Of a DNA stretch of 64,000 nucleotides, positions 1 through 64,000 are shown piece after piece. The number at the start of each line of letters is the position of its first letter. Position 1 is the stretch's first letter. The DNA is taken from assembly GCA_963749495.1 (NCBI GenBank), contig CAVVMW010000018.1, positions 62,240 through 126,239 of the forward strand. The letters are read 5' to 3'. This DNA comes from an uncultured bacterium (GTDB taxonomy: Bacteria > Verrucomicrobiota > Verrucomicrobiia > Limisphaerales > UBA8199). The notes below the pieces were generated by a model, which was not told the DNA's origin, made no database searches, and was given only the letters and a program-made list of their open reading frames with translations. A program made the position numbers and the translations under genes.

Positions 1-1
1 C

Positions 2-865
2 ACCATCTACTACGGGCGGCGCGGCGCGGCCGTGCAGGTGCTCTCCGGGTTCGATATCGCCTGTCACGACATTATCGGCAAGGCCATCGGGCGTCCCCTG
101 CACAAGCTCCTGGGCGGCGCCTTCCGCCAGCGCGTGCGCGCTTACGCCTCCACCCTCTTCCGCCAGACGCCCGACGACATGAAGCGCGCCTGCGAGTTCT
201 ACTTGCGGCGCGGTTTCACCGCCATCAAGTTCGGCTGGGGTCCCTTCGGCCAGGACCGTCGGCGCGATATCGCCCTGGTCGCGGCGGCGCGCGAGGCGAT
301 TGGGCCCGGCGTTGAGCTGCTGGTGGACCCGGGCTGGATGGTCAACCGCAGCGCCTGCGAGGCCATTGAACTGATCCGCGCCTTGGAGCCATACCGCATC
401 TTCTGGCTCGAGGATTTCCTGCACCCTGAATGTTATGAGGGCTACGCCCGTGTCAAAGAGGCGGGCCTCAAGACGCGGCTGGCCGCCGGCGAGCAGGAAG
501 CCACCGCATGGGGCTTCCACGACCTCATCACGCGCGCCAAGGTGGACGTGGTGCAGCCGGACCTGAGCCGGTGCGGCGGCTTGAGCCAGGCGCGCAAGAT
601 CATCTGGGAGGCGCAGCGGGCCGGTGTGGACGTGTGCCCTCACGCGTGGCTCACGGACTTGCTCTCCGCCGCAAGCCTGCACGTCAATGCCTGCCTGGAA
701 CGCAGCCTCTTCCTGGAATACAACGTCTGCGACAACCCGATGCTCCGCGAAATCATCCGCAATCCGATTCAAATGGACCCCGACGGCATGGTGCCCGTTC
801 CCCAGGGGCCGGGCCTGGGCATCGAGATCGACGAGACGGCCGTGGAACGCTTTCGCGTGGGATGA
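2..865 (+). CDS. Enolase-superfamily enzyme (mandelate racemase/muconate-lactonizing family, sugar-acid dehydratase-like), 5' end outside window
   Basis: Frame is open from nt 2. Product has FDIACHDIIGKAIGRPLHKLLGG, FWLEDF, GEQE, DVVQPDLSRCGG and CPHAW, typical of the MR/MLE C-terminal barrel. Stop overlaps the next start (ATGA). Confidence 0.8.
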   Translation, partial: TIYYGRRGAAVQVLSGFDIACHDIIGKAIGRPLHKLLGGAFRQRVRAYASTLFRQTPDDMKRACEFYLRRGFTAIKFGWGPFGQDRRRDIALVAAAREAIGPGVELLVDPGWMVNRSACEAIELIRALEPYRIFWLEDFLHPECYEGYARVKEAGLKTRLAAGEQEATAWGFHDLITRAKVDVVQPDLSRCGGLSQARKIIWEAQRAGVDVCPHAWLTDLLSAASLHVNACLERSLFLEYNVCDNPMLREIIRNPIQMDPDGMVPVPQGPGLGIEIDETAVERFRVG

Positions 866-1542
866 ATGCGACTTCTTTCACCAACGACTCTCAGCGCTTT
901 GATTGGATTCGACATCACCTCTACGTGGCTGCTGTCTGCGACATTCTGGACAGCCTGGGCCATCGGCAGCAGGCCATGCACCAGCGCCTGCGGCCCCTTG
1001 ACCCGGCCAACTGCACCATCGTCGGCCGCGCCCGGACCATTCGTTGGATGGAGACTGATTACGTTGTCGAGGATGATCCCTACGGCTTGGAGATCGACGC
1101 GATGGACTCGCTCAAACCGGGCGATGTGCCTGTCCACTCCACCGACTACGGCGGGACCAACGCGCCCTGGGGCGAGTTGATGAGCACGGTGGCCAAGCGC
1201 AACGGCGCCGTCGGCTGCGTCTGTGACAGCCAGATTCGTGACTGCCGCAAGATTATCGAACTTGGTTTCCCGGTTTTTTACCAAGGCATTCGGCCGCTGG
1301 ACAGCAAAGGCCGCGGGCGGGTGATGGCCTGTGACGTGCCGGTGAAGTGCGGCGAGGTGCTCGTGCGCCCGGGCGAGCTAATCTTCGCTGATTTTGACGG
1401 CGTGGTTGTGGTGCCAAAGGCCGTGGAGGACGAGGTCCTGCGCCTGGCCCAGGAGAAGGTCGGCAAGGAAAATGACTCGCGCCGCGAACTGCTCAAGGGC
1501 CGCTCTCTTCGCGACGTGTACAACCAATACCATGTGCTTTGA
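862..1542 (+). CDS. RraA-family protein (RraA / HMG-aldolase-like)
   Basis: ATG 862 overlaps the upstream stop. The 226-aa product has GGTNAPWGELMSTVAKRNGAVGCVCDSQIRD and FADFDGVVVVP, which are RraA-fold hallmarks. Confidence 0.8.
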   Translation: MNATSFTNDSQRFDWIRHHLYVAAVCDILDSLGHRQQAMHQRLRPLDPANCTIVGRARTIRWMETDYVVEDDPYGLEIDAMDSLKPGDVPVHSTDYGGTNAPWGELMSTVAKRNGAVGCVCDSQIRDCRKIIELGFPVFYQGIRPLDSKGRGRVMACDVPVKCGEVLVRPGELIFADFDGVVVVPKAVEDEVLRLAQEKVGKENDSRRELLKGRSLRDVYNQYHVL

Positions 1543-1545
1543 CTT

Positions 1546-2253
1546 ATGAACATACTGGCGGTCGGGGCGCATCCCGATGACATTGAAATCCTGTGCGCGG
1601 GCACCCTGGCGCGTTACGCCCAGGCAGGACACGCCGTGACCCTGGCCTCGTTCACGTGCGGTGATATGGGCGACACCCGGGTTCCGCCGCCTGAACTTGC
1701 GCGCATCCGCAAAGCGGAGTCGGAGGCCTCGGCCGCGATTCTTGGGGCGCGCTTGCTCTGGCCGGCCATCACCGATGAACTGGTCTTCCCCAACGAGGAG
1801 CAGCGCCGCATCATGATCGACCTTCTGCGCCAAGCCGATCCGGACGTCATTCTCACACACAGCCCGAACGACTATCATCCGGACCATCGCTACGTTTCGC
1901 AGCTTGTGTTTGATTCCTATTTTCAGAAGGGGCTGCCGCACTTGCCCAACCAGCGCCTGCCGGCCTGCCGGTTCGGCCAGGCACAGGTTTATTACATGGA
2001 CAACCTCGGCGGCATCGCCTTCGAGCCGGCCGAATACGTGGACATCACGGAGGTGATCGAAACCAAGTGCCGCATGCTGCAATGCCACCAGAGCCAGCTC
2101 AAGGGCATGAAGGACCTGGCCCGGACTGACATTGTGGAAATGGTTCGCATCCAGGCGGCCTTTCGGGGTCTGGCTGCGGGCTGCCGCTACGCGGAGGCCT
2201 TCCGCCCGCTCCAGGCCTTCCAGCGCGGCCTCACCCGCCGCATCCTGCCGTGA
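1546..2253 (+). CDS. PIG-L/LmbE-family deacetylase
   Basis: MNILAVGAHPDDIEI and HPDH motifs; 235 aa; starts 3 nt after the upstream stop. Confidence 0.85.
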   Translation: MNILAVGAHPDDIEILCAGTLARYAQAGHAVTLASFTCGDMGDTRVPPPELARIRKAESEASAAILGARLLWPAITDELVFPNEEQRRIMIDLLRQADPDVILTHSPNDYHPDHRYVSQLVFDSYFQKGLPHLPNQRLPACRFGQAQVYYMDNLGGIAFEPAEYVDITEVIETKCRMLQCHQSQLKGMKDLARTDIVEMVRIQAAFRGLAAGCRYAEAFRPLQAFQRGLTRRILP

Positions 2254-2306
2254 AGATCGACCGCTCAGGCCGTGCGTTGCCCTGCAACCCTTGGCGACCA
2301 GGAATG

Positions 2307-2350
2307 CTCCCTCTCCCCATCAGATGGGGAGAGGGCCGGGGTGAGGGGTC
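2307..2350. repeat. Family-1 hairpin repeat, single unit
   Basis: CTCCCTCTCCCCATCAGATGGGGAGAGGGCCGGGGTGAGGGG. Same unit recurs at 4343, 4450, 31087, 31224, 33422, 50470 and 50556. Confidence 0.9.
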
Positions 2351-2389
2351 GTCCGTCTGTCGTGCATCCCGCGGCTCGCTCGGTGACGC

Positions 2390-4046: not shown

Positions 4047-4342
4047 GCGCGGCCCAACGGGCCGCTAGAGCCTAGCCCAGGGCTGAGGCCGTCAGGCCGA
4101 TGCCCTGGGTGTTGGCCTCAGAAGTGCGCAAGGCGCCCTGAAAGAATTCCCGGAACAAATTCGCGCTTTGGGCCCCTGAACCTCGACACTGCGTTCCCGT
4201 CCCGCGAAGCGTTTTGGACTGCCGCAGTCCAAAACCTTCGGCCTTGGCGACGGTTCATGGAGAAGGCGCCAGACGGTTCTGGCGCCCCTTCAGGGCGCGC
4301 CGGTTCTCGCGCACGCCAGTCCCAGGGCATCGGCCTGGCGGA
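4047..4342. repeat. Family-2 composite repeat (right arm truncated)
   Basis: Contains AGCCTAGCCCAGGGCTGAGGCCG-CAGGCCGATGCCCTGGG, GCGCCCTGAAAG, AATTCGCGCTTTGGGCCCCTGAACCTC and the 25-bp palindrome GTTTTGGACTGCCGCAGTCCAAAAC. Colinear with 8018-8420 and 34896-35112. Confidence 0.85.
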
Positions 4343-4489
4343 CCCCTCACCCCAGCCCTCTCCCCGTCAGACGGGGAGAGGGAGCAGCGAAGCCTGGCTC
4401 GCCCCGGCTCCCGAGCCTTGGGATTCGCCAAGCGACGTGCGACGGTCCACCCTCTCCCCATCCGATGGGGAGAGGGCCGGGGTGAGGGG
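4343..4489. repeat. Family-1 inverted pair (TIR-like unit, about 147 bp)
   Basis: CCCCTCACCCCAGCCCTCTCCCCGTCAGACGGGGAGAGGG at 4343-4383 and its inverted copy at 4450-4489. Confidence 0.9.
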
Positions 4490-7395: not shown

Positions 7396-7602
7396 ATGCC
7401 AGCCGATCCGGCGAAGTCTAAGCCCGTGAAACGCAGCAGATCGAACCGCCAGCGGAAGAGCAAGGGCACGCTCAGCGTACAAGAGCATCGCCCAATGATG
7501 AACAAGCTCTCTGGCACGGAACGCCAGCAACTTATGAAGGCAGGCTACGAGCTGATCTATGGAGTCCAGCGGCAACCCGAACCTGCTGCTCGCCGCCGAT
7601 AG
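7396..7602 (+). CDS. Small basic hypothetical protein (68 aa)
   Basis: ORF only; no recognisable domain; lies between a large CDS and a repeat. Confidence 0.25.
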   Translation: MPADPAKSKPVKRSRSNRQRKSKGTLSVQEHRPMMNKLSGTERQQLMKAGYELIYGVQRQPEPAARRR

Positions 7603-7637
7603 CAATCTCCCACTGGACGTGGCCGACGGGAACGAGG

Positions 7638-7905
7638 GGTGCGATTAAAACTGGCGGTCAGCCCACGGCGCCTTTTTGCCCCGGAGGGGCTTCCGACAAT
7701 AGCCCGGCGTTTCAACGCCGGGTGCGCGGACCCAAGGAGCAGGTCCGTCCCGAAGGGACGGCTGAAAGCAAGGAGCGTTCTCAGTCGTCCCTTCGGGACG
7801 AGGGTCGCTTTTGTGGCCTCCCCGGCGTTGAAACGCCGGGCTATTGTCAGATGTCCCTCCGGGACAAAACCCCCGAGGCGCATGCCCGACGCTTTTAATC
7901 GCACC
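7638..7905 (+). repeat. Family-3 MITE-like element (about 268 bp, TIR GGTGCGATTAAAA)
   Basis: Terminal inverted repeat GGTGCGATTAAAA...TTTTAATCGCACC. Internal hairpins CCCGGCGTTTCAACGCCGGG (x2), GTCCCGAAGGGAC and GTCCCTTCGGGAC. Other copies at 43421, 56099, 60138 and 63908. Confidence 0.9.
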
Positions 7906-8017
7906 CGGAACCGATGCGGCCATTGACGCGATTGATACGACACAATCCCGACTGCCGCGCGCGTTTTGTCATTTCCCCATCCGTGTTCTTCAGATGAAGC
8001 TTAGGCTAACGTTGGCC

Positions 8018-8420
8018 GGCCCAAAGGGCCGGGAGAGCCTAGCCTAGGGCTGAGGCCGCCAGGCCGATGCCCTGGGAACACGTCCATCGAGGATCATGTG
8101 CGCCCTGAAAGGGCGCCAGAGCCCTCTGGCGCCCTCCCCAGGAACCGACACCAAGTCCGAAGGTTTTGGACTGCGGCAGTCCTCTGCCGCTTTCGCGCCG
8201 GCAGCGAGGGGACACAAAAGCGGCAGAGGACTGCCGCAGTCCAAAACGCTTCGCGGGACGGGAACGCAGTGTTGAGGTTCAGGGGCCCAAAGCGCGAATT
8301 CGTTCCGGGAAATCTTTCAGGGCGAGGGGCCCGGGTTTGTGGCGAAACCCAGGGCATCGGCCTGGCGGCCTCAGCCCTGGGCTAGGTTCTGGCGGCCCGT
8401 TGGGCCGCGAGGCAGCGGCT
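8018..8420. repeat. Family-2 composite repeat, full palindromic form (about 400 bp)
   Basis: Outer arms AGCCTAGGGCTGAGGCCGCCAGGCCGATGCCCTGGG / CCCAGGGCATCGGCCTGGCGGCCTCAGCCCTGGGCTAGG. Core is GTTTTGGACTGCGGCAGTCCTCTGCCGCTTT...AAAGCGGCAGAGGACTGCCGCAGTCCAAAAC. Confidence 0.9.
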
Positions 8421-12663: not shown

Positions 12664-12806
12664 CACGTCCTTCCAATTCTGCCGAAGCAAGCCCCTGGAC
12701 CCGTTCCAGGAGAGCGTGCTTGACCGGGTTTTTACCAAAAAGCGCCCTCCGTGTGAAGTGTGCGTTTGGGGGCACACCCCGCTAGGGCCCATCCTGACAG
12801 TCCCCC

Positions 12807-12918
12807 CGGAGTGCGCCCGTCCCCGGGCGCAGCGACGTCCGGAGCCAGCGCAGCGGTCAAACGCTCCACCGCGCCTGCTCGCCCCGTCGCTGCTGCGCCC
12901 GGGGACGGGCGCACTCCG
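12807..12918. repeat. Family-4 foldback repeat (about 110 bp)
   Basis: Perfect 26-bp arms GGAGTGCGCCCGTCCCCGGGCGCAGC / GCTGCGCCCGGGGACGGGCGCACTCC. Copies at 24151, 56027 (split) and 57790. Confidence 0.9.
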
Positions 12919-12967
12919 CTCGCCCTCGGCGGTGGGGGCAATGCCGGGATGCGCCTGCCCCTGCGGA

Positions 12968-13139
12968 GCGCGCGACAGAATTCTTCGGATGCACGATGGA
13001 ACCGGCGGTGCGTGCTCTGGACGCCAAAGGCGTCGTTCATACCAGCCCAGGGCAACGCCCTGGGAACAGCCGCCAATAGTCATCTGGATCGCTGAAAGCG
13101 CGATTCATCCTCCCGGAGGCTTATGAGGCAGGCCGTTGG
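12968..13139. repeat. Family-5 foldback repeat, left half (interrupted)
   Basis: Colinear with 63090-63250 up to ...GAGGCAGGCCGTTGG, then homology stops at 13139. Confidence 0.9.
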
Positions 13140-13145
13140 TCAAGC

Positions 13146-13451
13146 TTGCCAACTACGCCTGATTGCGACGATCTGGCACAGGTCTTTCGCATCACGCACC
13201 CCTATCACCCGCTCCGTGGCCGGGGGTATAGACTACTGCGCCGCGGACAGGGCTGGGGAGATCGTCGGGTCTGGTTCCATGATGACGCCGGACAGTTGAT
13301 TTCATTGCCTGAAGCCTGGACCAGCCTGGGACCGGCCGACCCGTTTGTGACCCTCTCGCAGGGGCGCGCTTGCGCACGGGTGGAAGACCTGCTTGGGCTG
13401 GCGCAACTGGTGGCGGACTTAAGCCGCAACGATGTAAAGGGGAATATGTGA
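13146..13451 (+). CDS. Small protein resembling the DUF5372 / Y4bD-Y4pK family (from memory)
   Basis: FRITHPYHPLRGRGYRLL...RVWFHDDAGQLISLPEAWTSLGPADPFV. Only a TTG start is available in the integrated state, 6 nt inside the element end. Confidence 0.55.
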   Translation: MPTTPDCDDLAQVFRITHPYHPLRGRGYRLLRRGQGWGDRRVWFHDDAGQLISLPEAWTSLGPADPFVTLSQGRACARVEDLLGLAQLVADLSRNDVKGNM

Positions 13452-13538
13452 ATGCTGTAAAGAAGAATATGTGTAATGATTTTGGGGTGTGGGCGGTTGA
13501 TGTGCATTGTTACGCCTATAATAAGGCAAATAATAGGG

Positions 13539-13568
13539 TTGACACGGAGCCGGAGACGCCACTATACT
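13539..13568 (+). promoter_or_regulatory. Sigma70-like promoter inside the element (TTGACA-18-TATACT)
   Basis: TTGACA at 13539-13544 and TATACT at 13563-13568, in the only AT-rich stretch of the element, 39 nt upstream of ATG 13607. Confidence 0.5.
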
Positions 13569-13606
13569 CACATAAACTAGTTCACATAAGCCCACCCCCA
13601 TCCTTT

Positions 13607-14110
13607 ATGCCAACGGCTCCATCCCACGACGCCAAGCACCAAGCCCTCCAAACCAGCCATACCCTGCATCCCCACCCCGACAAAGTCCGCCACCCCCTCT
13701 TTGTCCCCGGCGGCTTCTTTGATGCCCGCGACCTCCTTCAAGTCAAATATGAGGCCCTGCGCGCCCTCCGCGCCGAAGGCTGGTCCTTGAGCCGCGCCGC
13801 CCGAGATTTCGGGCTGTCGCGACCCACGGTTTACCAAACCAAACACCTCTTCGCCCTCCAGGGCCTGGAGGGTCTGGTGCCTCGCAAGCCGGGACCCAAA
13901 ACCGCTCATAAATTCACCCCCGAGGTTTTGGGCTTTCTCCAAGCCAGGCGCGCCCAGCAACCGGCGATCTCGGCGGAGCAGTGGGCCCGACAGGTCCAGC
14001 AACGCTTCCGGCTCACCATCCATCCCCGGAGCATTGAACGCGCCTTGGTTGGCCACCAAGAAAAAAGGGGGCGACACAACCCACCGCCCTCAACACCCCA
14101 AAATCCATGA
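13607..14110 (+). CDS. Helix-turn-helix domain protein of the recombinase element
   Basis: WSLSRAARDFGLSRPTVYQTKHLF is an HTH. Stop overlaps the next start (ATGA). Confidence 0.7.
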   Translation: MPTAPSHDAKHQALQTSHTLHPHPDKVRHPLFVPGGFFDARDLLQVKYEALRALRAEGWSLSRAARDFGLSRPTVYQTKHLFALQGLEGLVPRKPGPKTAHKFTPEVLGFLQARRAQQPAISAEQWARQVQQRFRLTIHPRSIERALVGHQEKRGRHNPPPSTPQNP

Positions 14111-40387: not shown

Positions 40388-40391
40388 AGTC

Positions 40392-48441: not shown

Positions 48442-48475
48442 GTACACGCCCGGGAACAACGCTGAGGTCTAGCGC

Positions 48476-48796: not shown

Positions 48797-50477
48797 TCAC
48801 TGGGCGGGCTTTTCGAATTTGGCCGGGCCGAGGGTGAGGGTGCCTTGGAAGAGGGCGGGGGCGTTGGTGACGATGCCGGCGCCCAGCAGGGTGGCCGTGG
48901 CGGCGGCGCTGGGCCAGGAGATGGCGGCCAGGGCCTGGGAGTCCAGGGAGAGCAAATCGGAAGTCAGCACCAGGCGCTCGAGGGCGTACTGAGTGCGCGC
49001 GGCGGGCGCGGAATTCGGGACGGATGCCAGAACGCTGTTGGTGAACCAACTGCTGATATCCGTATCGCGGTTGGTCCCGTTGAGCATGTCGCGGACCACG
49101 AATCGCGAGGCGCCCGTGTTTGAAGGAGTGACCAGGAGGAGTTTTGCTGCCGAGGAGAAGCCGCCATTGGGCGCCGCTTGCGCCAGGGCTTTGAGGATGT
49201 CCTTGTTGGCAAGGGCTGCTCGGAAGACGGTCGAGCCGGCGGCATTGGCCGGGCCTTGGATAGTGGCCGTGAGAGTGAGCAGCACGCTCTGGACGGCGTT
49301 GGAGAAACCGCCGTTGATGCTCCAGGCTCAGCTTCTGGGTCAACAGGCCCGCAGGGTCGGTGCGCACAAGGCTGGTGCGGTCCTGGACCAGAGCGCTGAT
49401 GAAATGGCCGCCGGGGCCGAGTCCCGGCGGCAGGCCCAGGGAAAGGTTGGTGGCCCCGCTCACTGGCTGGCCGTCGGCCAGCCACTGCACGCTCAGGTCG
49501 TGAGTGGCAGGCTGCAGCAGGTCCAGGCTGAAGTCCGCCCCCTGGCCGGCAGGCACCGTCAGGCTCAGGCCTCCAGGGCTGAAACCGTCCACTGGCCGGA
49601 CGCTCTGGTAAATCGCGCGCACCAGGGCCTGGCTGCAGACCTCGCAGAAGGGCGAACCGAAACTGCCCATCATGCAATTGAGCTTGGGACGATACCAGCC
49701 GTTGGTGTGATAATGGGCGCCCTGGAACAACCCGACTACCTCGGCGTAGTCGGAGCTCAGCGGCGTGGGCAGCGGGGTGCCGGGCGCTATCCAGACACTC
49801 CATTTGATATAGCCTGGCCGCGTCTCGCGCGTGGTGTTGGGCTCCTCGGTATCGGGAAAACCGGGCCTGGCGGTGGTGTATTCATCGCCCAGGTTGGCCA
49901 GCACGTGGCCCGTCTCGTGGGTGAGAATGATCAGGGCTTCGTCCGGAACCACGCCGGCCGAAGTCGAGGCAAGGGCGGTCTTGTCGAATCCGTCCGAGCC
50001 TCCGGGGACGGAGTCGTTTACCAGGAGAATGGGCAGGCGGCAGCGGGGCAGGAGGGCCTTGAGCAGCGCGTCCACCTTGGCCTGGCCGGCCGGCGGCATC
50101 GTGATGAGACGGTCGTCGAGGTCGTACGTGCTGCCGAAGTAAGTGTTCCTCTTGATCCCGGAATTGAGGTGAGTCGAGCCGGCTTGAGGCGAGGCAACGA
50201 AGATGGCGAAGGCGTTGAAATAGCCGCTGTATTCCCGGTAGGGCGGCCAGGAGAGCAGGGCGGTGACCGAGTTGGTCGCAGCCGCCAGGAACAGGCCCGA
50301 TTGATTGCTGGTGTAGCCCTCGGAGAGCAGCACCATGTTCAGCCGGTTGGACACCGGGCCGTTGATCAGAATCGTGCTCAACAGGGGCTGGCCATCCGCG
50401 CGCAGGCCGCCCGCAGCCAGCACGCCCAATCCCAATGCCGCGATAATGCCGAGCAGCCCGCGCCGGTGACCCCTCAC
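48797..50477 (-). CDS. M64-family (IgA-peptidase-like) zinc metallopeptidase with an apparent frameshift near 49310; start uncertain
   Basis: Has LTHETGHVLANLGDEY. The C-terminal domain (WSINGGFSNAVQSVLLTLTATIQG...) is in the frame of ORF 48797-49285. The candidate GTG start at 50477 lies inside a family-1 repeat and precedes the signal peptide RRGLLGIIAALGLGVLAAGG. Confidence 0.7.
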
Positions 50478-50595
50478 CCCGGCCCTCTCCCCATCTGATG
50501 GGGAGAGGGAGATGCTACGGACGCCCTCGGGAACATCGGACGCCGAAACGCTACCCCCTCTCCCCGTCCGACGGGGAGAGGGCTGGGGTGAGGGG
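50470..50595. repeat. Family-1 inverted pair (about 126 bp)
   Basis: CCCCTCACCCCGGCCCTCTCCCCATCTGATGGGGAGAGGG at 50470-50509 and CCCTCTCCCCGTCCGACGGGGAGAGGGCTGGGGTGAGGGG at 50556-50595. Confidence 0.9.
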
Positions 50596-50633: not shown

Positions 50634-53544
50634 TCATTCGAAGCTCAGCCGGTAAAAGCGGCTAGCCGGGGGATTGGTGAGACTGAGCACCCACCAGTTG
50701 TTGGTGGTCAGGACCGGCGTTGAGGCCAAGGTGGTCCACTGGGCCGGGGGTGCGAGGCTGGGCGTTTCCTTGAGCGTCAGGGGTGCGCTATTGGTCCAGG
50801 AGAGCAGGACCAACTGCCGGCCCAGATGCGCGCCGGCCGCGCCATAAGAACGAGGTCATGCTCAGCGCCGGCACTGCCTGCACCGGCACGGCCAGGGAGA
50901 ATTCGGAGGTATTGCCCTGGGCATCGGTGGCCGTGGCGGTGATGACGCTGACCGCCGGCACCGGGTTGGTGAGAAAGGCCAGGAAACTGCCGTTGCAGTC
51001 CGCGCCGGTGGATACCGTCTTTTCGCCCAGATAGACCTGTCCCTCGCCATGATCCTGGCCGATGATCAGGTCGGGCATCGGCTCAGCAAAGAACTGGACA
51101 CGGCAGAGGCCGTTGGGGCGGGTGTTGAGCGTGCCGCTGACGCCGGTGCCGTTTGGCCCCGCCACCGCGTTGGAGAGCACGGGGTAATTCTGCCCGAGAT
51201 TGGCGGCCCCGGCCCCGACCCCCGCATCGCAGGGCAGATTAGCCCACACGCCGTATTGGCCGAGGTTGATGCCCAGGGCGCCATTGGCGAAGATCGCGTT
51301 GCCCAGGATGGAATCGCAAGCGGCGCCGTCGCGGATGCGGACCCCCGCGAAATCCCCATGGGCGTAAGCGATGCGGTTGCCCGCGTTGGCATCGCCGCCG
51401 ATCAGGTTGTAATTGGCCCCGGCCTCGCACTCGACGCCGTGAAAGATGTTGCACAGGTTGGCCACCCCGTCGCTCTTGGTGCCAATCCAGTTGCCCTGGA
51501 TGACATTCCAGCAGGAATTGGTCATGTAGATGCCGTCGCCGTTGGCATAAGAAGCGCCGTTGCCGGAGATTAGATTGCCCGCGCCCGGCGCCGCGCCCCC
51601 GATGACATTGGTGGAGGCGCTCTCGATGTAGATGCCGTCGTAGAAGTTGCCCAGCCGGGCCGTGCCGGTGAGGTCGGTGCCGATCTTGTTGCCCTGGATG
51701 AGAGTGCCGCTGGAGCCGCTGCCGACGATGGAAATGCCCGTGTAGCTATTGGCTGAAATGAGGTTGCCGGCCCCCGGGGTTGCGCCGCCAATCCTGTTGC
51801 CCGGAGCATCGGAGAGGAAGAGCCCGGACGCGCCGTAGGGGGCGGCGAGGCCGTTGGGCAGGGGGGCCGTGCCGCTGGAATCGGTCCCGATGAGATTGCC
51901 GGCCACCACGTTGCCCGTGGCGGTGGCGCCGTCCAGTTGGAGGCCGTCCAACCCGTTGCCGGAGATCACGTTGCGCGCCCCGGTGAGGGCCCCGCCGATC
52001 GTGTTGCCTGGGGATTGGATGTACACGCCCGCCATGCCATTGGTCAACGAGGTCTGGCCGCCGGCATCGGTGCCGATCCAATTGCCCTGCACCAGGTTGG
52101 CCGTGGTTCCGGAGATGAGCGCGACCCCGTGGCCGCGGTTGCCTGAAATCACGTTGCCCGCCCCGGTGAGCGTCCCCCCAACCGCGTTGGAAAGTCCGCC
52201 GGAAATGGTGACTCCACTATAGGCATTGCCCAGGGTGCCTGCGCCAGTTCCGTCCACTCCGATGCGGTTGCCCTGCACCAGGTTGCCCACGCCGTTGGTG
52301 ATGAAGATGCCGTCCTGTTGGTTGCCCAAAATCAGGTTGGCCGCCCCGGGCACAGTCCCCCCGATGAGGTTGGCGTTCGCGTTTTCGATGGTTATGCCTG
52401 CGTAGCTGTTGCCCAGGGCCTGCCGTCCCGAGGGCCTGGCGCCAATGCTGTTGCCCTGCACCACGTTGTTGGTCGCGCCGGCACCGTCGACGAGGATTCC
52501 TGCATGGCTATTGGCCAGGATCACGTTGCCCGCCCTGGCACCGGTGCCCCCAATGAGGTTCGAGGCCGCCTCGACAATCGAGATGCCGTCCCCGGCGTTG
52601 CTCAAGCTCATGCTCCCGGTCACGTCGGTGCCGATGTAATTGCCCTGCACCACATTGCCGTTGGCGCCCGGACCCTGGAGCAGCACGCCGCTGCCGCCGT
52701 TGCCGGCGAGGATGTTCGTTGCACCGGGCGTCGCGCCGCCTATGAGGTTGCCCGACGAGTTCAACACCAGCACGCCGTTATTGGCGTTGCCGAGCCGCGT
52801 ACGGCCGTTGGCAGTCGTGCCGATGAAATTGCCCAGCACTGCGTTGCTCGGGGCGGAGTAGAGATAGACGCCGCAATCGGAGCTGGCAGAGATCACATTG
52901 CGGTCCGCGGCATTGGTCCCGCCTATCACATTGCCCTGGGACGAATAGACGTAGATCCCCTCCCCGCCGTTGGCCCGGCTGAGGGTGCCGCTCACATCCA
53001 GGCCGATGAAATTGCCCCGGATCCAGTGGTTGCCCAGGCCCTCGATCCGCACCCCGCCCCCGGCAAACCGGTTGATGACCAGCCCGCAGACCACACAGTT
53101 GCTCGAGAGCAAATGCAGACCGTTGCCGCCCCCCGCGCTCGCCCCGTCCAGCTCGATCAATGGAGAGCCGGCGAACCCCGGCTGGGTCGTGCCGTCAATC
53201 ACCACCGGGTCCGTGACTGCTGGCAGGGCCGAATGGGGGAGGATCGTGTGAGTGGCCTTGCCCGGTATTCGGAAGATGATCTTGTCCAGCCCATTGCTCG
53301 AGTTGGCATTGAGCATCGCCTCGCGCAATGAACCCACCCCGCTGTTGAGCGTGTTCGAGACCACGAACGTCGCCGCCTCGCTCCTGAGCCCCGCGCCAGC
53401 CGCCGCCAACACCAACCCCAGCCACGCCCCAGCCCAGCGGCGCCCGAGGCCAGCCTGGGCCCGGAGACGCGAAATGCCCGGAATAGTCTCTTCCCTCCGG
53501 CCGCCTTCGCCACCGCTTGTCATATCCGGCATAAGTGCAGACAT
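50634..53544 (-). CDS. Right-handed parallel beta-helix repeat protein with an N-terminal CSLREA-like motif; apparent frameshift near 50830
   Basis: GSLREAMLNAN, then dozens of G-N-x-I-x-G-N repeats. The C-terminal HLGRQLVLLSWTNSAPLTLKETPSLAPPAQWTTL...ASRFYRLSFE is open in another frame down to the TGA at 50634. Confidence 0.75.
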
Positions 53545-55929: not shown

Positions 55930-56026
55930 AGGCTGGGCTGGTTCTTTTCTGCGCGTCTATAGTCGAAATGCGACCGGGAGGCGAGTCAAAAAGGGCGGAG
56001 GGCGAGGCAAGGGCGCGTCCCTGCCC

Positions 56027-56417
56027 CGGAGTGCGCCCGTCCCCGGGCGCAGCAGCGATGGAGCGGGCAGGCGCGCAGGTGTGTTTGACCGCTGCCCAGG
56101 TGCGATTAAAAGCGTGGGGCATGCGCCTCGGGAGTTTTGTCCCGGAGGGACACCTGACAATAGCCCGGCGTTTCAACGCCGGGGAGGCCACAAAAGGGAC
56201 CCTCGTCCCGAACGGACGAGTGACAACACTCCTGGCTTTCAGCCGTCCCTTCGGGACGGACCTGCTTTTTGGGGCCGCTCACCCGGCGTTGAAACGCCGG
56301 GCTATTGTCGGAAGCCCCTTCGGGGCAAAAAGGCGGCCTTGGCTGGCCGACAGTTTTAACAGCACCCCCGCTGCCGTGGCTCCGGACGTCGCTGCGCCCG
56401 GGGACGGGCGCACTCCG
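56027..56417. repeat. Family-4 foldback repeat split by a family-3 MITE
   Basis: The left part 56027-56098 and right part 56367-56417 together match the intact copy at 57790-57897. Confidence 0.9.
56099..56366 (-). repeat. Family-3 MITE-like element nested in a family-4 repeat
   Basis: GGTGCGATTAAAAGCG...CAGTTTTAACAGCACC, flanked by CCGCTGCC at 56089-56096 and 56368-56375. Confidence 0.9.
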
Positions 56418-56599
56418 GTCCGGCCCCCGGCGTTGGGGGCGGTGTCGGGATGCGCCCCCCCTGTGCATTGAAACGCACAGTTTGCAACCCCCGGGGGGAA
56501 GCGAAGGGTGCGTAATGAAGCCCTGTGAAACAGCCATTCATTCATCGGACCGCGATCGACCCTCGATCCCCAGGCTTGACAAAACAGCGGGCCAAACGA

Positions 56600-56627
56600 T
56601 TGACTCCATCCGCGCAACAGATACAAT
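56600..56627 (+). promoter_or_regulatory. Sigma70-like promoter (TTGACT-16-TACAAT), 7 nt before the start codon
   Basis: TTGACT at 56600-56605, TACAAT at 56622-56627, GTG at 56635. Duplicated at 58082-58109. Confidence 0.5.
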
Positions 56628-56634
56628 CCCAGTT

Positions 56635-57384
56635 GTGAAAACGAACCCAAGATCTCCAGACCAGCCCCTGGCCTTTACGCTGATCGAGCTTCTGGTGGTG
56701 ATCGCCATCATCGCCATCCTCGCAGCGATGCTGCTGCCCGCCTTGGCGAGCGCCAAGGAAAAAGCGCAGCGTATGCAGTGCGTCAACAACAACAAGGAAT
56801 TGGGGTTGGCGGTAACCATGTACGCGACCGACAGCAGAGATATTCTCCCTTACCCGAATTGGAACCCGCCCTGGTATGCGGGCTGGCTTTACGCGCCTTA
56901 TGCGGGAAGCGTCCCTGACCCCACCCACAGCCCCTTCAATACGAACTCAACGTCGGCATACGGCAGCGGACAGATCTGGCAGTACCTCAAGAACATCGGA
57001 GTCTACCGGTGCCCCCTGGACAAGACCAACGCGCCGGACTGGAAGGTGCGGGCCAACAAACTGTCCACGTACGTCATGAATGGCGCGGTGTGCGCTTACG
57101 GCAATTTCGCTCCCCGAAGTTATAAGCTTTCCGACTTTAAGGCCACCGACTACATGATGTGGGAACCGGACGCGGACTTGATGGGGAACAACTACAATGA
57201 CGGCAGCAGCTACCCGGACGCGAATGAAGGCTTGGGCCACCGCCATGGCAAGATCGGAGGCATCGTCCTCGCCTTTGGATCGCATGTCCTATTCGTCCAA
57301 TACGCCAAATGGGCGAAGCTCAGCGCGAGCCCAACCAGAAACGAACTGTGGTGTAGTCCCGGCAACCCCCAAACGGGCCGTTAG
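56635..57384 (+). CDS. Prepilin-type N-terminal methylation domain protein (pseudopilin paralog 1)
   Basis: [37 protein letters not shown]. Ends at an in-frame TAG, followed by 31 more codons homologous to the paralog 2 tail. Confidence 0.8.
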
Positions 57385-57488: not shown

Positions 57489-57851
57489 ATGCACCGCAAA
57501 CCCGCCATGCCCGCTCAGAAGCCCTTGCGCACCAGCCTTGTTTCTGCCAAGAGATGGCTCGATTGGACAGCCGTCTTCTGCCTGCTCCTCCTCATCGCCT
57601 GCACCCTGGCGGGCTGCAAGAAGCCCGTCGCGGGCACTAACGCCCACTCGAGGCTCCTTCAGTCGGCCGCCCCCAGATCAAGTCCGCAAACGTTGTCGCG
57701 GAACCCGAGCTGCGGGTCGAGTGCCGACTCGCGCTTTCCGACCCGTCCGACCGGTCCCCACCCCCCCTGGCGTATCGCGACACTGCCCGCGGAGTGCGCC
57801 CGTCCCCGGGCGCAGCAGCGACGGAGCGGGCAGGCGCGCCGCAGTACTTGA
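57489..57851 (+). pseudogene. Small lipoprotein paralog, 5' fragment only
   Basis: KRWLDWTAVFCLLLLIACTLAGCKKPVAGTNAHSRLLQSAAP matches 59637-60029 up to about 57685. The ORF then runs into unrelated sequence and a family-4 repeat. Confidence 0.6.
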
Positions 57852-57897
57852 CCGCTGCCCTGGCTGCGGACGTTGCTGCGCCCGAGCACGGGCGCAC
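57790..57897. repeat. Family-4 foldback repeat (intact)
   Basis: GGAGTGCGCCCGTCCCCGGGCGCAGCAGCGACGGAGCGGGCAGGCGCGCC...GCTGCGCCCGAGCACGGGCGCACC. Confidence 0.9.
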
Positions 57898-58081
57898 CCC
57901 CATCTCGCCGCAGCCGGTGGGGGCGGTGTCGGGATACGCCCCCCCCTGTGCGCTGAAACGCACAGTTTACAACTCCTGGGGGGAAGCGTAGGATGCGTAC
58001 GTAAGCCCTGTGAAACAGCCATTCATTTATCGGACCGGGATGGACCGTCAATCCAGGCTTGACAAAACCGCGCGCAAACGA

Positions 58082-58109
58082 TTGACTCCACCCGCGCAAC
58101 AGATACAAT
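58082..58109 (+). promoter_or_regulatory. Sigma70-like promoter (TTGACT-16-TACAAT), 7 nt before the ATG
   Basis: TTGACT at 58082-58087, TACAAT at 58104-58109, ATG at 58117. Confidence 0.5.
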
Positions 58110-58116
58110 CCCAGCT

Positions 58117-58962
<846 letters not shown>

Positions 58963-60029: not shown

Positions 60030-60137
60030 CGTGCCGTCCCGCTGACGGGCACCCCAAATTGCAAAGCGCCTGGAGATGCGCGGCACGCCCGCGTTCTGGC
60101 TCCATGAGCGCCGCCCCGCCCGGCCGGGGGATTATTG

Positions 60138-60403
60138 GGTGCGATTAAAACTGTCGGTCAGCCCACGGCGCCTTTTTGCCCCGAAGGGGCTTCCGACAAT
60201 AGCCCGGCGTTTCAACGCCGGGTCAACGAACCGAAAGAGCAGGTCCGTCCCGAAGGGACGGCTGAAAGCAACGAGTGTTCTCAGTCGTCCCTTCGGGACG
60301 AGGGTCCCTTTTGTGGCCTCCCCGGCGTTGAAACGCCGGGCTATTGTCAGATGTCCCTCCGGGACAAAGCTCCAAGGGGCATGCCCACTCTTCTAATCGC
60401 ACC
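60138..60403 (+). repeat. Family-3 MITE-like element with a perfect 9-bp flanking duplication
   Basis: GGTGCGATTAAAACTG...CTTCTAATCGCACC. GGGATTATT occurs at 60128-60136 and 60405-60413. Confidence 0.9.
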
Positions 60404-60828
60404 TGGGATTATTCCAACCATTGACACCCCAACCCCTTGGGCTAGATTGCGGCGCATGATGACGCCGCGTAACGAGACACGACAGGGCCACCCGGCCGCG
60501 GGCGCTTCCCGACACTGCCCCCGGAGTGCCCTCGTCGCCGGGCTGAAAGCCCGAAATGTGACAGCCTGGGCTGGAGCGAGCTTGCGAGCGGAGGCCCAGG
60601 TCATCGGGCCGGAATCTGGCGCGCCCTGTAGGGGCGCCATAAGGTCCCGGCCCTACAGGCCGGGGCTTTTCGAGGGGCACTGGCTTACCCGGGCCTCCGC
60701 TCCGCTCCAGCCCGGGCCATCACATGGCGGGCCTTCGGCCCTGGGGCGCCGGGGGGGATTGGTCCGGGCCAGGCAGGAAATGCCGGACATCTCGATGGCG
60801 GCGGTGTATAGTGATCCGGATTGAGTTC

Positions 60829-62322: not shown

Positions 62323-63051
<729 letters not shown>

Positions 63052-63089
63052 AGGCTAAAGGCTAAGGTGCAGCGGGGCAGGGCGCACGA

Positions 63090-63363
63090 CAGAGTTCTTC
63101 GCGTGCATGATGGGGCCGGAGGTGCGTGCTCTGGACGCCAAAGGCGTCGTTCATACCAGCCCAGGGCAACGCCCTGGGAACAACCGCCAATAATCATCTG
63201 GAGCGCTGAAAGCGCGATTCATCCGCCGGGAGCTTCATGACGCAGGCCGTTGGCCTGCAACAGAATAGATGATGGGCGGTGGACCCAGGGCGACGGCCCG
63301 CCTGCGTTGCGCTCCGGCGGGCCTTGCCCTGGGCTGGTATGACTCAGGCCTTCGGCCTGAACC
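63090..63363. repeat. Family-5 foldback repeat, intact reference copy
   Basis: Arms are TCATACCAGCCCAGGGCAA (63151-63169) and TTGCCCTGGGCTGGTATGA (63324-63342). The apex palindrome CAGGCCGTTGGCCTG is at 63243-63257. Confidence 0.9.
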
Positions 63364-63381
63364 CCAGCGCGCAAACTCCGC

Positions 63382-63594
63382 CTAATGCTTCTTCAAGAGC
63401 GCCAGCAGCTTGCCGTCCAGCCTGTGCCCGTGCCGATCCTCGTAGAATCCCGAAGGGAAATATCCCCGGCAGCCCTGGGCGATGTTCAGTTCCTTGAGTT
63501 CGGGAGTCACCAGGTTTCCGACCCTGTTTCCGTCAGCAATCACCCGATGGCCCGGGTTGGCGGCGCGAATGGCCTCGGTTGCGCCCTTGGCCAC
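63382..63594 (-). pseudogene. Gene fragment, possibly a glycoside-hydrolase remnant, truncated by a family-2 repeat
   Basis: 70-aa ORF (EAIRAANPGHRVIADGNRVGN...) whose upstream side abuts the repeat at 63598. Weak similarity only. Confidence 0.25.
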
Positions 63595-63597
63595 CGC

Positions 63598-63659
63598 CCG
63601 CGAAGCGTTTTGGACTGCCGCAGTCCAAAACCTTGCGGGCTTGGCGACGGTTCATGGAG
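63598..63659. repeat. Family-2 repeat, short form
   Basis: CGAAGCGTTTTGGACTGCCGCAGTCCAAAACCTTGCGGGCTTGGCGACGGTTCATGGAG. Confidence 0.9.
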
Positions 63660-63717
63660 ATCCCCCTTTGGCTTCTGCCAATGCATTGGGACCGTGAACC
63701 GGTCAGGGGCCCCGAGG

Positions 63718-63837
63718 CTGCGAAGCGTTTTGGACTGCGGCAGTCCTCTGCCGCTTTTCCAACCCCAGCGCGCACGAAAGCGGCAGAGGACTGCCGCAGT
63801 CCAAAACCTTGCGGGCTTGGCGACGGTTCATGGAGAG
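63718..63837. repeat. Family-2 repeat, long form
   Basis: GTTTTGGACTGCGGCAGTCCTCTGCCGCTTT...AAAGCGGCAGAGGACTGCCGCAGTCCAAAACCTTGCGGGCTTGGCGACGGTTCATGGAG. Confidence 0.9.
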
Positions 63838-63907
63838 CTTGTGCCAGCCGCAGGGCAAAGAGCAAGAATAGAAGTGCTTTCTCCCGAAAACCTGAATGGG
63901 CGAAACG

Positions 63908-64000
63908 GGCGCGATTAGAACTGTCGGCCCGCCGCCGGGGCCTCTTTGCCCCGAAGGGGTTTCCGAGAGTAGCCCGGCGTTTCAACTTTCAACGCCGGGT
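63908..64000 (+). repeat. Family-3 MITE-like element, partial (runs off the window)
   Basis: GGCGCGATTAGAACTGTCGG...GCCCCGAAGGGG...AGCCCGGCGTTTCAAC, a diverged left end. Confidence 0.8.

Follow-up and report, generated by a model that had tools for sequence, protein, structure and literature searches.

Foldback repeats dominate the intergenic DNA of the window

The analysed stretch of DNA (the window, 64 kb) belongs to an 11.4-Mb verrucomicrobial genome on 31 contigs (a MAG, 88% complete, 5.8% contamination) and carries foldback repeats, insertion sequences (ISs), a serine-recombinase element and pilin-like genes. A repeat search of the window returned 43 direct repeat families and 80 inverted pairs (D and I numbers below). 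Together with the long single-hairpin folds of representative units, it confirmed the foldbacks where a sequence-only reading had placed them. Folded as DNA, families A (271 nt; -108.6 kcal/mol, z = -13.6) and G (285 nt; -92.9 kcal/mol, z = -8.9) were each more stable than all of 200 shuffles; folds with RNA parameters were also computed for the repeat units. Two apparent families (repeats at 16980-17118, 56593-56836 and 58075-58329) were rejected as foldbacks, being conserved 5' ends of N_methyl/DUF1559 paralogues, the pilin-like genes.

Repeats with at least ten copies make up 11.3% of the window, with 92% of these bases non-coding, and cover 40% of its non-coding DNA. They occur in 21 of the 28 intergenic gaps of at least 150 bp, so that repeats do dominate intergenic DNA, but the statement that nearly every long intergenic region is built from them was somewhat overstated. 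The spurious ORFs that the repeats had been said to generate were found as well: ORFs of at least 120 aa cross repeats at 7557-7943 (-), 55968-56471 (+), 56106-56537 (-) and 60135-60824 (+).

Comparing the window with the whole genome by blastn yielded 8,919 non-self HSPs, and 10.2 kb of the window had at least three other genome copies. The foldback repeats occurred 50-480 times, with near-full-length copy numbers of 88 (A), 156 (B), 220 (C core), 389 (D hairpin), 76 (E), 123 (F) and 46 (K). Every counted family was found on 14-22 of the 31 contigs, in copies of 72-96% identity with unique flanks. The families are thus dispersed, structured, mobile and non-coding, as proposed, and are not confined to the window as an assembly artefact or a collapsed region would leave them. 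20-mers present at least ten times account for 3.85% of genome bases and 9.6% of the window, which lies at the 97th percentile of the genome's 64-kb windows and is an extreme of its own genome in repeat load. The window's families alone make up 2.0% of the genome; genome-wide, about 81% of repeat bases are non-coding by a crude gene call. This load is high, yet comparable to what is known from MITE- or REP-rich bacteria; the suggestion that such a density is unusual for a bacterial chromosome found no support.

Families A, E and C3long are MITEs with a probable link to ISKra4-family transposases

Families A, E and C3long are true MITEs: non-coding elements of 170-270 bp with GGGYGC...GCRCCC inverted termini (tips GGGTGCGAT in A, GGGCGCATCC in E and GGGCGCATCTC in C3long) and 9-bp target duplications. 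Their copies in the window, and an element with an E-like tip, are:

7637-7907 (+), family A MITE, 271 bp; tips GGGTGCGATTAAAAC...GTTTTAATCGCACCC; core of two inverted Acido-Lenti-1 modules, RF01687 at 7677-7722 (-) and 7821-7866 (+)
43420-43690 (-), family A MITE; repeat I3, 92% complementary to 7634-7873; RF01687 at 43459-43504 and 43603-43648
56099-56367 (-), family A MITE nested in an E copy; target CCGCTGCCC duplicated at 56089-56097 and 56368-56376, 8/9 identical
60137-60404 (+), family A MITE; perfect 9-bp target duplication GGGATTATT
63907-64000 (+), family A, cut by the window end; repeat D5, 86%
12785-12955 (+), family E MITE; tips GGGCGCATCCTGACAC...GTGTCGGGATGCGCC
24145-24279 (-), family E copy; repeats D4, I7
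56006-56463, family E copy in two parts, 56006-56098 and 56368-56463, around the inserted A; repeat I24
57769-57941 (-), intact family E; repeats D4 (92%), I5
60498-60752, foldback of ~255 nt with E-like tip GGGCGCTTCCCGACACTGCCCC; modules E5 and I; MFE -184 kcal/mol (RNA parameters)
20209-20427 (+), C3long MITE, 219 bp; tips GGGCGCATCTCACC...; C hairpin central at 20278-20366

Among 62 full-length family A copies, 30 were bounded, right at their ends, by a perfect direct repeat of 6 bp or more (modal length 9 bp), against 2.5% in a flank-swap control. Repeats of at least 6 bp were present in 46% of the genome copies of E (control 3%) and in 35% of those of C3long (control 5%), in which duplications measured 8-11 bp.

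A profile search assigned a 429-aa transposase, present in about a dozen copies in the genome, to the ISKra4 family (NF033572, 247 bits). Its IS starts with GGGTGCG (ends GGGTGCGCGACAAAAAAGTAAC) and has copies with perfect 9-bp duplications; a paralogue, 41% identical, has ends GGGCGCATGACGG, and two copies of an IS ending in GGGCGCAT showed no clean target duplication. The MITE ends resemble those of the ISKra4-family ISs over the first 7-9 nt only, and no autonomous element with exact A, E or C3long ends was found in the genome. In 13 of 71 family A copies TTGAC starts 15-17 nt outside the end, whereas the 55-nt flanks of this family contain TTGAC 24 times in total, these 13 included; the peak was absent from all other families examined.

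For prokaryotic Mutator-like elements, duplications of 8-9 bp have been reported and, for some members of the ISKra4 group, insertion sites at a distance of 13-17 bp from sigma-A promoters (Guerillot et al., 2014, PMC3942029). The MITEs described here resemble this p-MULT/ISKra4 group in their G...C inverted ends and 9-bp target duplications and in the accompanying multicopy transposase; the TTGAC peak of family A matches the reported insertion near sigma-A promoters. They differ from ISKra4 ISs in the short terminal match, in interiors that are long foldbacks unrelated to the IS and, in family A, in an interior that appears to derive from a Y1 (HUH) element. The literature searched contained no description of MITEs derived from ISKra4. 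For A, E and C3long, mobilisation in trans by ISKra4-family (prokaryotic Mutator-like) DDE transposases encoded in the same genome is most likely.

The core of family A resembles a small Y1 (HUH) unit

The inner 190 bp of family A consist of two inverted Rfam Acido-Lenti-1 motifs, which are two-hairpin modules, and small GNRA/UUCG-type hairpins. Eight RF01687 matches in the window exceeded the gathering score, always as inverted pairs within a larger element and on both strands. Arms of the same core flank a single-copy IS200-like Y1 gene, both in the host genome and in other genera. PF01797 matched 24 times in the genome. Six Y1 genes of ~150-210 aa, in at most three copies each, are bordered on both sides by repeats of 30-400 copies, and five of these genes have left and right flanks that form inverted repeats of 108-134 nt. 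One Y1 gene (C24) stands in a family A copy exactly in place of its central spacer; the link of D to a Y1 gene, at locus C21, is one-sided.

In other genomes, an Acido-Lenti-1 match adjoins the gene at 7 of 13 related Y1 loci, and five of six such loci examined, from five genomes, have inverted arms ~40-100 nt outside the gene, with compensatory changes in the stems (CCCGGCG/CGCCGGG vs CCCAACG/CGTTGGG). The A core matches in other genera lack the GGGTGCG shell, and this terminus was also absent from the same-genus Y1 loci examined. The Y1 proteins retain the HUH motif, have ISDra2 and IS608 TnpA as closest solved structures and score 50-63 bits with the IS200 model (cut-off 55), but only 21 bits with the RAYT model (cut-off 80). 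With these shared arms, the A core is thus an ORF-less, REPIN-like form of a small IS200-like Y1 (HUH) unit; conserved adjacency suggests a role of the Y1 enzyme for this core. Target duplications are not known from HUH Y1 enzymes, so the Y1 gene cannot explain those of family A.

The arrangement recalls REPINs and RAYTs (Bertels and Rainey, 2011, PMC3116915) in its low-copy Y1/HUH genes flanked by inverted copies of an over-represented extragenic palindromic module, in the several distinct gene-repeat pairs within one genome, in long hairpins formed by ORF-less doublets and in a gene-arm pairing that is kept across genera. It differs in that the proteins score as IS200-like rather than RAYT, one Y1 type occurs in three copies, the arms are multi-hairpin modules of 110-134 nt and not REPs of roughly 20-40 nt, and family A, the most abundant derivative, bears extra inverted ends and 9-bp target duplications. 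The 46-nt two-hairpin Acido-Lenti-1 motif, matched both in the window and next to Y1 genes elsewhere, had been reported from Acidobacteria and Lentisphaerae as a candidate sRNA, in some cases close to group II introns (Weinberg et al., 2010, PMC2864571). Here, in contrast, it occurs in Verrucomicrobiota, in inverted pairs in the window and by most Y1 genes examined, and forms the arms both of a transposon-like unit and of a repeat family of roughly 190 loci.

Family F shares its ends with an IS4-family insertion sequence

The arms of family F are the ~60-nt terminal repeats of a 2.1-kb IS4-family IS with a 514-aa transposase. Genome-wide, F-F' pairs comprise six of ~2.1 kb, 23 ORF-less ones of 210 bp and 11 of ~390 bp with a C module. 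In further cases the DDE gene is replaced between the arms by an IS200-like Y1 gene or decayed copies of it, and two internally deleted derivatives of this composite lie elsewhere in the genome. The recurring flanks of family F (GTCGGTCTGAATCTC / CGAGGCAGAGCAGGA) suggest a preferred target. The series of common ends on a full-length IS, an ORF-less short form and insert-bearing forms is that of an IS4-family IS with its deletion MITEs, from which it differs in the Y1 gene and the recurring flanks. The window holds three composites:

8017-8407, F-C composite; F arms 8017-8076 and 8348-8407; C module of ~180 bp (hairpin 8158-8255) in the GAAA loop of the inner hairpin GCGCCCTGAAAGGGCGC; repeat I22
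4050-4342, F-C composite with collapsed C hairpin (4206-4234); F' arm truncated after ...GGCCTGGCGG at 4342; repeats I8, I15, I19
34896-35106, partial F-C composite; F arm 34896-34947, collapsed C hairpin ~35043-35070; repeat I10

Families B, C, D and K and a further insertion sequence

The remaining small families and a second IS are represented by:

39064-39280 (+), family B foldback, diverged single unit; repeats D6, D19
40389-40837 (+), family B array; partial unit 40389-40415 and tandem 211-nt units 40416-40626 and 40627-40837; repeat D1, 98%
48473-48683 (+), family B unit; repeat D1, 91%
30266-30453 (+), C-hairpin element with palindromic CCATGAACCGG-type arms; core hairpin 30295-30387; repeats D17, D18
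63597-63837, two C modules; collapsed hairpin 63607-63631 and long hairpin 63727-63815; the same 49-nt arm follows both; repeat D11, 100%
2307-2350 (+), family D single hairpin; repeat D10
4343-4489, family D doublet, REPIN-like; an inverted pair of CCCTCTCCCC-loop-GGGGAGAGGG hairpins on GGGGTGAGGGG feet; repeat D10
50468-50595, family D doublet, REPIN-like, 128 nt
31049-31301, foldback of ~250 nt around D hairpins; extra outer arms are P and Q modules
33422-33477 (+), D-like hairpin with few genome copies, inside a crudely called ORF (31833-34091) and not intergenic
26079-26196 (+), family K, 118 bp; CTAG...CTAG ends; 46 genome copies, ~95% identity
26484-28494 (-), IS1380-family IS, 2,011 bp; TIR CTAGCCCGCATATTTCATAG; transposase split into two ORFs; 10 genome copies at least 99.5% identical

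Family B comprises 170 units in 141 arrays of up to six units genome-wide, and the genome holds 137 near-full-length D doublets, for which no target duplication of at least 6 bp was found in the copies examined. The C core was absent from three same-genus genomes examined and present in other genera. No mobilising enzyme was found for families B, C, D, G and K in this MAG; because it is incomplete, partner elements may be absent from the assembly.

Family G and the order of insertions

Later insertions give nestings that order events. An intact copy of family G and two interrupted or truncated ones were identified:

63077-63361 (+), intact family G foldback; apex GCAGGCCGTTGGCCTGC at 63243-63260
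12963-13139 (+), G copy, left part, interrupted at the apex; repeat D12, 89% to 63077-63253
13140-16465 (+), 3.3-kb element with a gene for an HTH protein and a gene for a 650-aa large serine recombinase (14473-16425, XisF/Ccr-like), inserted at the TTGG core of the G apex
16466-16554 (+), G copy, right part; repeat I9, 96%
35394-35572 (-), truncated G copy; repeats I9, I11, I14
35768-36871 (-), IS4-family transposase gene

The serine-recombinase element, with junctions GCCGTTGG/TCAAG and GCTTTGG/CCTGC, thus lies in the apex palindrome of a G copy, as the sequence-only reading had stated for this family. An IS4 copy was placed there inside or against another copy; "against" holds only approximately, the gene lying ~200 nt beyond the truncated end of G, and "inside" found no support. 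The reported MITE within a MITE was recovered as A in E at 56098/56368, with the duplicated target CCGCTGCCC/CCGCTGCCG and intact E copies (57830-57880, 24195-24245) as reference. Insertion of A after E agrees with the divergence of the copies, median identity to the window copy being ~92% for A and ~76% for E. Likewise, the doublet that begins at 4343 abuts the F' arm truncated at 4342.

Origin and spread of the elements

The window contains more than the six families first counted, and they are not free of mutual similarity. A, E and C3long have common GGGYGCR tips, at least four distinct outer elements have the C hairpin as their core, the A core lies within at least five different shells, and B is often located inside a D hairpin. 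The elements therefore appear to be built as nested modules, with shared cores (A core, C hairpin, D hairpin) in different outer shells. Composites have also been multiplied as whole units: the genome has three copies of E plus an IS50-like IS, E arms included, and F plus Y1 has left derivatives.

A pure REP/REPIN-RAYT system, with all foldbacks spread by flanking Y1 (HUH) transposases on single-stranded DNA and without DDE transposases, would account for Y1 genes bordered by inverted high-copy palindromes, for the conservation of this arrangement across genera and for D doublets without target duplications, and it has a precedent in IS200 'Group 3', for which RAYT-like behaviour was described (Bertels et al., 2017, PMC5581495). 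We regard it as unlikely, since F arms bound an IS4-family DDE gene in at least six copies, the RAYT model was missed and Y1 genes adjoin just three of the window's families (A, F and, weakly, D). Inverted ends with 9-bp target duplications, as in A, E and C3long, are moreover not known from HUH enzymes.

Slightly less probable again is that these are host-serving structured elements that multiplied, be it as sRNAs (Acido-Lenti-1), terminators, mRNA stabilisers or BIME-like protein-binding palindromes. The RF01687 matches, the very stable folds and the largely non-coding location are in line with this idea, and copies of A and E show ~4-fold more compensatory pair changes than a shifted control; most substitutions, however, break pairs. 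Target duplications and inverted ends indicate insertion by transposition, the Acido-Lenti-1 motifs always form inverted pairs within a larger element, and the distribution among relatives is patchy, as for the C core. Because co-option after insertion is possible, a host function would be compatible with mobile elements. The estimated contamination and the 31 contigs could raise the suspicion of an artefact of assembly or binning (sequence that is collapsed, chimeric or from a MAG contaminant); this is highly improbable and in practice already refuted by copies within long contigs, by individual target duplications in unique flanks and by related copies in independent genomes of the same and other genera.

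The elements are probably nested non-autonomous elements with ISKra4/IS4-type shells around Y1-derived or similar cores. With their observed inverted ends, target duplications and copy numbers, the shells of A, E and C3long would be moved in trans by ISKra4-family DDE transposases, and family F elements represent internal-deletion derivatives of the 2.1-kb IS4-family IS that use its terminal repeats. For the A core, the association with the gene points to probable spread by the Y1 enzyme on single-stranded DNA; in the host genus, ISKra4-type ends would then have come to surround this core, and amplification would have followed as a MITE of the cut-and-paste or copy-out type. Hairpins C and D, without target duplication and in several outer contexts, may be similar cores. 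Since such shells would move whatever is inside, composites could arise and spread, as exemplified by F arms around the Y1 gene or the C module and by E arms around the IS50-like IS. The links to transposase genes, absent from the sequence-only reading, decide the nature of these elements: they are a known kind of genome parasite, here unusually rich and modular.

Dispersal of the foldback repeats

The window corresponds to C18:62240-126239. The genome comprises 11.37 Mb in 31 contigs (named C5, C6 and so on) with ~63% GC, an estimated completeness of 88% and 5.8% contamination. The genes of the window encode prepilin-type N_methyl/DUF1559, PEP-CTERM and LTD/CotH proteins as well as SufBC, and the closest relatives of SufB are found in Verrucomicrobiota MAGs (one labelled Limisphaerales) at no more than 92% amino-acid identity, which marks the organism as a Limisphaerales-like verrucomicrobium. 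A repeat search of the window yielded 43 direct families and 80 inverted pairs. RNA-parameter folds were computed for 27 repeat units; in DNA folds, families A (z = -13.6) and G (z = -8.9) each formed a single long hairpin that was far more stable than the folds of shuffled sequences.

Comparing the window with the genome by blastn, we found at least three other copies for 10.2 kb of the window, with cores reaching 200-480 hits. Near-full-length copies numbered 88 for family A, 156 for B, 220 for the C core, 389 for the D hairpin, 76 for E, 123 for F and 46 for K, and the copies of each family were distributed over 14-22 contigs. With hundreds of copies on this many contigs, the repeats are not confined to the window, and the sequence-only reading, which had proposed many mobile foldback families with an informative nesting, was right in general. 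20-mers present at least 10 times make up 3.85% of the genome bases versus 9.6% of the window (97th percentile). The foldback seeds taken from the window have hits over 2.0% of the genome, ~81% of this in crudely called non-coding DNA. Within the window, 11.3% of the bases and 40% of the non-coding DNA belong to repeats that have 10 or more copies, and such repeats occupy 21 of the 28 gaps of at least 150 bp.

Two further candidate families, H and M, were rejected as foldbacks, as they correspond to the conserved 5' ends of prepilin-type (N_methyl/DUF1559) genes. These genes have so many paralogues that the family looks like a dispersed repeat: their upstream regions and first ~40 codons (window positions 16980-17118, 56593-56836 and 58075-58329) are conserved at ~85-115 genome loci. 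The window also contains a 918-aa beta-helix/NosD-like gene (50788-53544, minus strand) with internal tandem repeats of 183-189 nt, which are coding and unrelated to the foldbacks.

Families A, E and C3long are MITEs

Alignment of full-length copies together with their flanks revealed sharp ends for three families, with the inverted termini GGGTGCGATTAAAAC / GTTTTAATCGCACCC in A, GGGCGCATCCTGACAC / GTGTCGGGATGCGCC in E and GGGCGCATCTCACCTTTGTCGG / its complement in C3long. Of 62 A copies, 30 had a perfect direct repeat of at least 6 bp, most often 9 bp long, immediately abutting the two ends; in a control with right flanks swapped between copies, the share was 2.5%. Target duplications were also found for E (46% versus 3% in the control) and C3long (35% versus 5%), and none of this kind was present at the junctions of the C core, the D doublet (two inverted hairpins), K or N. 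All three families are short (170-271 bp) and non-coding, with 28-88 near-full-length copies plus additional partial ones, and the ORFs crossing them are spurious only. Based on inverted termini, target duplications, small size and copy number, A, E and C3long are MITEs. Pair-change (covariation) statistics gave a weak signal confounded by subfamily structure, and are weak evidence for selection on the repeat structure.

A genome-wide search for A-type ends spaced 0.4-6 kb apart, as expected for an autonomous partner, returned no IS with full-length A ends; four candidates turned out to be chance matches inside ordinary genes. Short tandem motifs of the (GGCTAAA)n and GAGGGGCGAGGGGCGAG type recur at window positions 63040-63066 and alongside several A insertion sites (e.g. 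C14:285106, C6:631667); they may represent additional families of repeats or else preferred targets.

ISKra4-family transposases as candidate movers

Self-comparison of the genome resulted in 275 long repeat segments representing many IS families. A ~1.84-kb IS with ~12 copies encodes a 429-aa protein that matches the NCBIfam ISKra4 model NF033572 with 247 bits (cut-off 205); its ends are GGGTGCGCGACAAAAAAGTAAC, its copies are flanked by perfect 9-bp duplications, and derivatives also have 9-bp duplications. A paralogous transposase (41% identical, two copies) belongs to an IS with the ends GGGCGCATGACGGAATTC. No ISKra4-family transposase gene lies within the window. The match between these IS ends and A, E and C3long is limited to the first 7-9 nt and the duplication length.

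[quoted passage not shown] In agreement with such promoter-proximal insertion, TTGAC starts 15-17 nt outside an A terminus in 13 of 71 copies; over half of the TTGAC boxes present within the 55-nt flanks lie at this distance. The peak is absent from the flanks of the other families, including E and C3long. Thus, tips and the 9-bp duplication length are common to the MITEs and the ISKra4-family ISs, and the promoter-proximal signature holds for A only. We infer that ISKra4-family transposases move the A, E and C3long MITEs.

Y1 genes between inverted repeat arms

PF01797 matches are present at 24 places in the genome. Six of the IS200-like Y1 (HUH) transposase genes, encoding ~150-210 aa, occur in at most three copies each (one type in three), and both of their borders consist of sequence present 30-400 times. 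In five of the six, the sequences on either side of the gene match each other as inverted repeats of 108-134 nt, and one gene (C24) sits exactly at the position of the family A central spacer. For the D family and another Y1 gene (C21), the D-type sequence is found on one flank only, and we therefore make no claim of a pairing.

The A-type arms have a counterpart in Rfam: the window contains eight hits to the Acido-Lenti-1 motif (38-46 bits, gathering score 37), with two per A copy, one in each arm and on opposite strands. Hits above the cut-off were obtained in 9 of 151 sampled Verrucomicrobiota genomes. Homologues of the Y1 proteins are present in 33 of 41 related genomes, and of 14 loci retrieved, 8 (including this genome's own) have the motif beside the Y1 gene. 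Inverted arms lie ~40-100 nt outside the gene in five of six orthologous loci from five other genomes, and their stems show compensatory differences (CCCGGCG/CGCCGGG versus CCCAACG/CGTTGGG).

The inner ~190 bp of family A (positions ~40-232), here called the A core, carry the two inverted motifs, and the GGGTGCG-type ends form an outer shell. About 40 genome copies have the core without this shell, in at least five other outer contexts. In other genera, matches to A cover the core only, full-length A with its ends being restricted to the same genus, and the same-genus Y1 loci are without the GGGTGCG terminus. This distribution indicates that the core belongs with the Y1 gene and that the shell was added later. 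Insertion of the core into a pre-existing shell is not supported by shell-only copies: one 51-bp A remnant with a 9-bp duplication was found and none for the ACAATGTTAGATTTCC shell, too few for a demonstration of this step. The C core, in turn, is missing from the three congeners but abundant in G004, which represents a different genus of the same taxonomic family, and it also occurs elsewhere in the order. Such patchy distributions are compatible with horizontal spread.

The gene-arm units resemble REPIN-RAYT systems, in which a single-copy Y1/HUH gene lies between inverted copies of an abundant extragenic palindrome, as observed here for five of six genes (one type having three copies). The arrangement is also kept across genera, the genomic behaviour that defines such systems. 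For IS200 elements, a 'Group 3' that behaves much like RAYTs has been described (Bertels et al., 2017; PMC5581495). The proteins, in contrast, fall outside the RAYT sequence family, scoring 21 bits on the RAYT model NF047646 (REP_Tyr_transpos; cut-off 80). They retain the HUH motif, reach 50-63 bits with IS200/IS605 TnpA (cut-off 55) and have ISDra2 and IS608 TnpA as closest solved structures; cleavage of one specific strand at the foot of the hairpin is reported for IS608 TnpA and TnpA-REP. Nevertheless, an IS200/IS605 IS would occur as near-identical multiple whole copies with dissimilar ends, whereas these genes have at most three copies and ends that are mutually inverted over 108-134 nt. 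Spread without target duplication, as in REPINs, holds for the D doublets and the C core, but A copies with GGGTGCG ends have 9-bp duplications.

A different HUH gene is present in a ~1-kb unit bounded by 24-26-bp inverted repeats (GGGTCAAACCATAACTTTTCACTT), found twice in tandem at C6:1027453-1029520 and in ~7 further copies (e.g. C14:44560-46437, C15:52818-53864). It encodes a 320-aa Y1_Tnp protein that matches the RAYT model best (55 bits, below the 80-bit cut-off). A multi-copy HUH gene between inverted repeats is unusual.

Family F arms carry different cargo

In the case of family F, an autonomous partner with matching ends was found. The ~60-nt F sequence is identical to the terminal inverted repeat of a 2.1-kb IS encoding a 514-aa IS4-family transposase with a YREK-like YLRRWRLEMCLDDLK motif. 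Among 50 adjacent pairs of the inverted arms F and F', 23 span ~210 bp in total, 11 ~390 bp, 6 ~2.1 kb and 2 ~680 bp. Alignment revealed that the 390-bp form is the 210-bp form with a ~180-bp C-hairpin module in the GAAA loop of the inner hairpin GCGCCCTGAAAGGGCGC. One ~674-bp form holds an IS200-like Y1 gene, and two 374-bp copies elsewhere keep only the first part of this gene. Given these different contents, the F arms move with differing cargo. Many F MITEs and F-bounded ISs share common asymmetric flanks, with GTCGGTCTGAATCTC at one end and CGAGGCAGAGCAGGA at the opposite end (e.g. C6:431449, C5:141261, C12:379176), which suggests a preferred or sequence-specific target or a still larger repeat unit.

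Other families are modular as well. The C hairpin is found inside C3long, the F composite and two other arm types, and B units often lie inside a D hairpin and can be repeated in tandem, with as many as six units of 211 nt per array. A 2.5-kb IS50-like IS (ends CTGCACCTTACACGC, duplication CGTCCCCG) is inserted in a family E MITE; its ORF encodes 605 aa, with a Druantia DruA-like domain (PF14236) fused to the DNA-binding domain (Tnp_DNA_bind) of Tn5-type transposases. The whole composite with the E arms occurs three times (C6:1048452-1050979, C14:213939-216474, C16:108003-110537), each time with the IS in the same position of E.

Nesting, chronology and insertion targets

Two larger mobile elements of the window have the following window coordinates:
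13140-16465: serine-recombinase element
13370-14110: HTH gene of this element
14473-16425: 650-aa large serine recombinase gene of this element
26484-28494: IS1380-family IS
27240-28127 and 26680-27225: split transposase ORFs of this IS

An intact E copy reads GACCGCTGCCCTGGCTGCGG, and the interrupted one GACCGCTGCCC, then an A element, then CCGCTGCCGTGGCTCC. Copy divergence (~92% identity for A versus ~76% for E) is in line with A as the younger of the two. The intact G sequence is GCAGGCCGTTGGCCTGC, and the interrupted copy reads GCCGTTGG/TCAAG... and ...GCTTTGG/CCTGC around the 3.3-kb serine-recombinase element, which integrated at the TTGG core of the G apex palindrome. Intact G copies resemble attB sites. 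A D doublet directly adjoins the truncated end of an F' arm at 4342/4343, and an IS4-family gene (35768-36871) lies ~200 nt beyond a truncated G copy. All 10 genome copies of the IS1380-family IS are at least 99.5% identical, and it is therefore very recent; at a distance of 290 bp there is a family K element of 118 bp, whose CTAG ends are similar.

Empty target sites were reconstructed for 29 A, 20 E and 5 C3long copies whose duplication was 7 bp or longer. These sites were no more palindromic than flank-swapped controls, with 10.2 versus 9.8 palindromic positions of 24 for A, 10.3 versus 9.6 for E and 9.2 versus 9.0 for C3long. Insertion aimed at hairpin apices is thus unsupported as a general rule for the duplication-bearing MITEs, and the near-apex position of A in E is probably incidental. 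For the C module, the serine-recombinase element, the IS50-like IS and the Y1 genes, loop or apex insertion is an anecdotal pattern. An empty-site comparison at the sufBC locus found only sufBC in common with the closest available species (72-85% nucleotide identity among the closest), in which no foldback family of the window occurs within 4 kb.

Biological meaning of the layered repeats

Taken together, the repeats are a case of MITE/REPIN biology, in which ISKra4-type MITEs and a conserved IS200-like Y1 gene-arm system, with the Rfam Acido-Lenti-1 motif as arm, are layered one within the other; the novelty lies in these details. A bolder reading, which we regard as rather unlikely, is a two-enzyme partnership: Y1 genes and multi-hairpin Acido-Lenti-1 arms would form a RAYT-like lineage in Limisphaerales-type Verrucomicrobiota, repeatedly captured inside ISKra4- or IS4-type DDE shells, and the Rfam 'sRNA' would be a transposon arm. 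If true, one repeat population would be propagated by two unrelated transposition chemistries. In a more radical variant, the Y1-associated unit itself may insert with a 9-bp duplication.

In annotation, the repeats give rise to many false ORFs and false gene starts, both in this MAG and in related ones, and they interrupt assemblies; both problems would be remedied by a library of the repeats of these Verrucomicrobiota. If A truly lands beside -35 boxes, ~140 copies may have rewired promoters across the 11-Mb genome. On this evidence, Acido-Lenti-1, whose range extends to the Verrucomicrobiota, would no longer count as a candidate small RNA; it would be the hairpin arm of a mobile unit that has a conserved Y1 gene as its partner. 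Furthermore, several distinct Y1-gene/arm pairs beside DDE-type MITEs with the same arms represent a natural system for the origin of REPIN-like elements, in which one can ask whether other transposases can take over REPIN-like populations.
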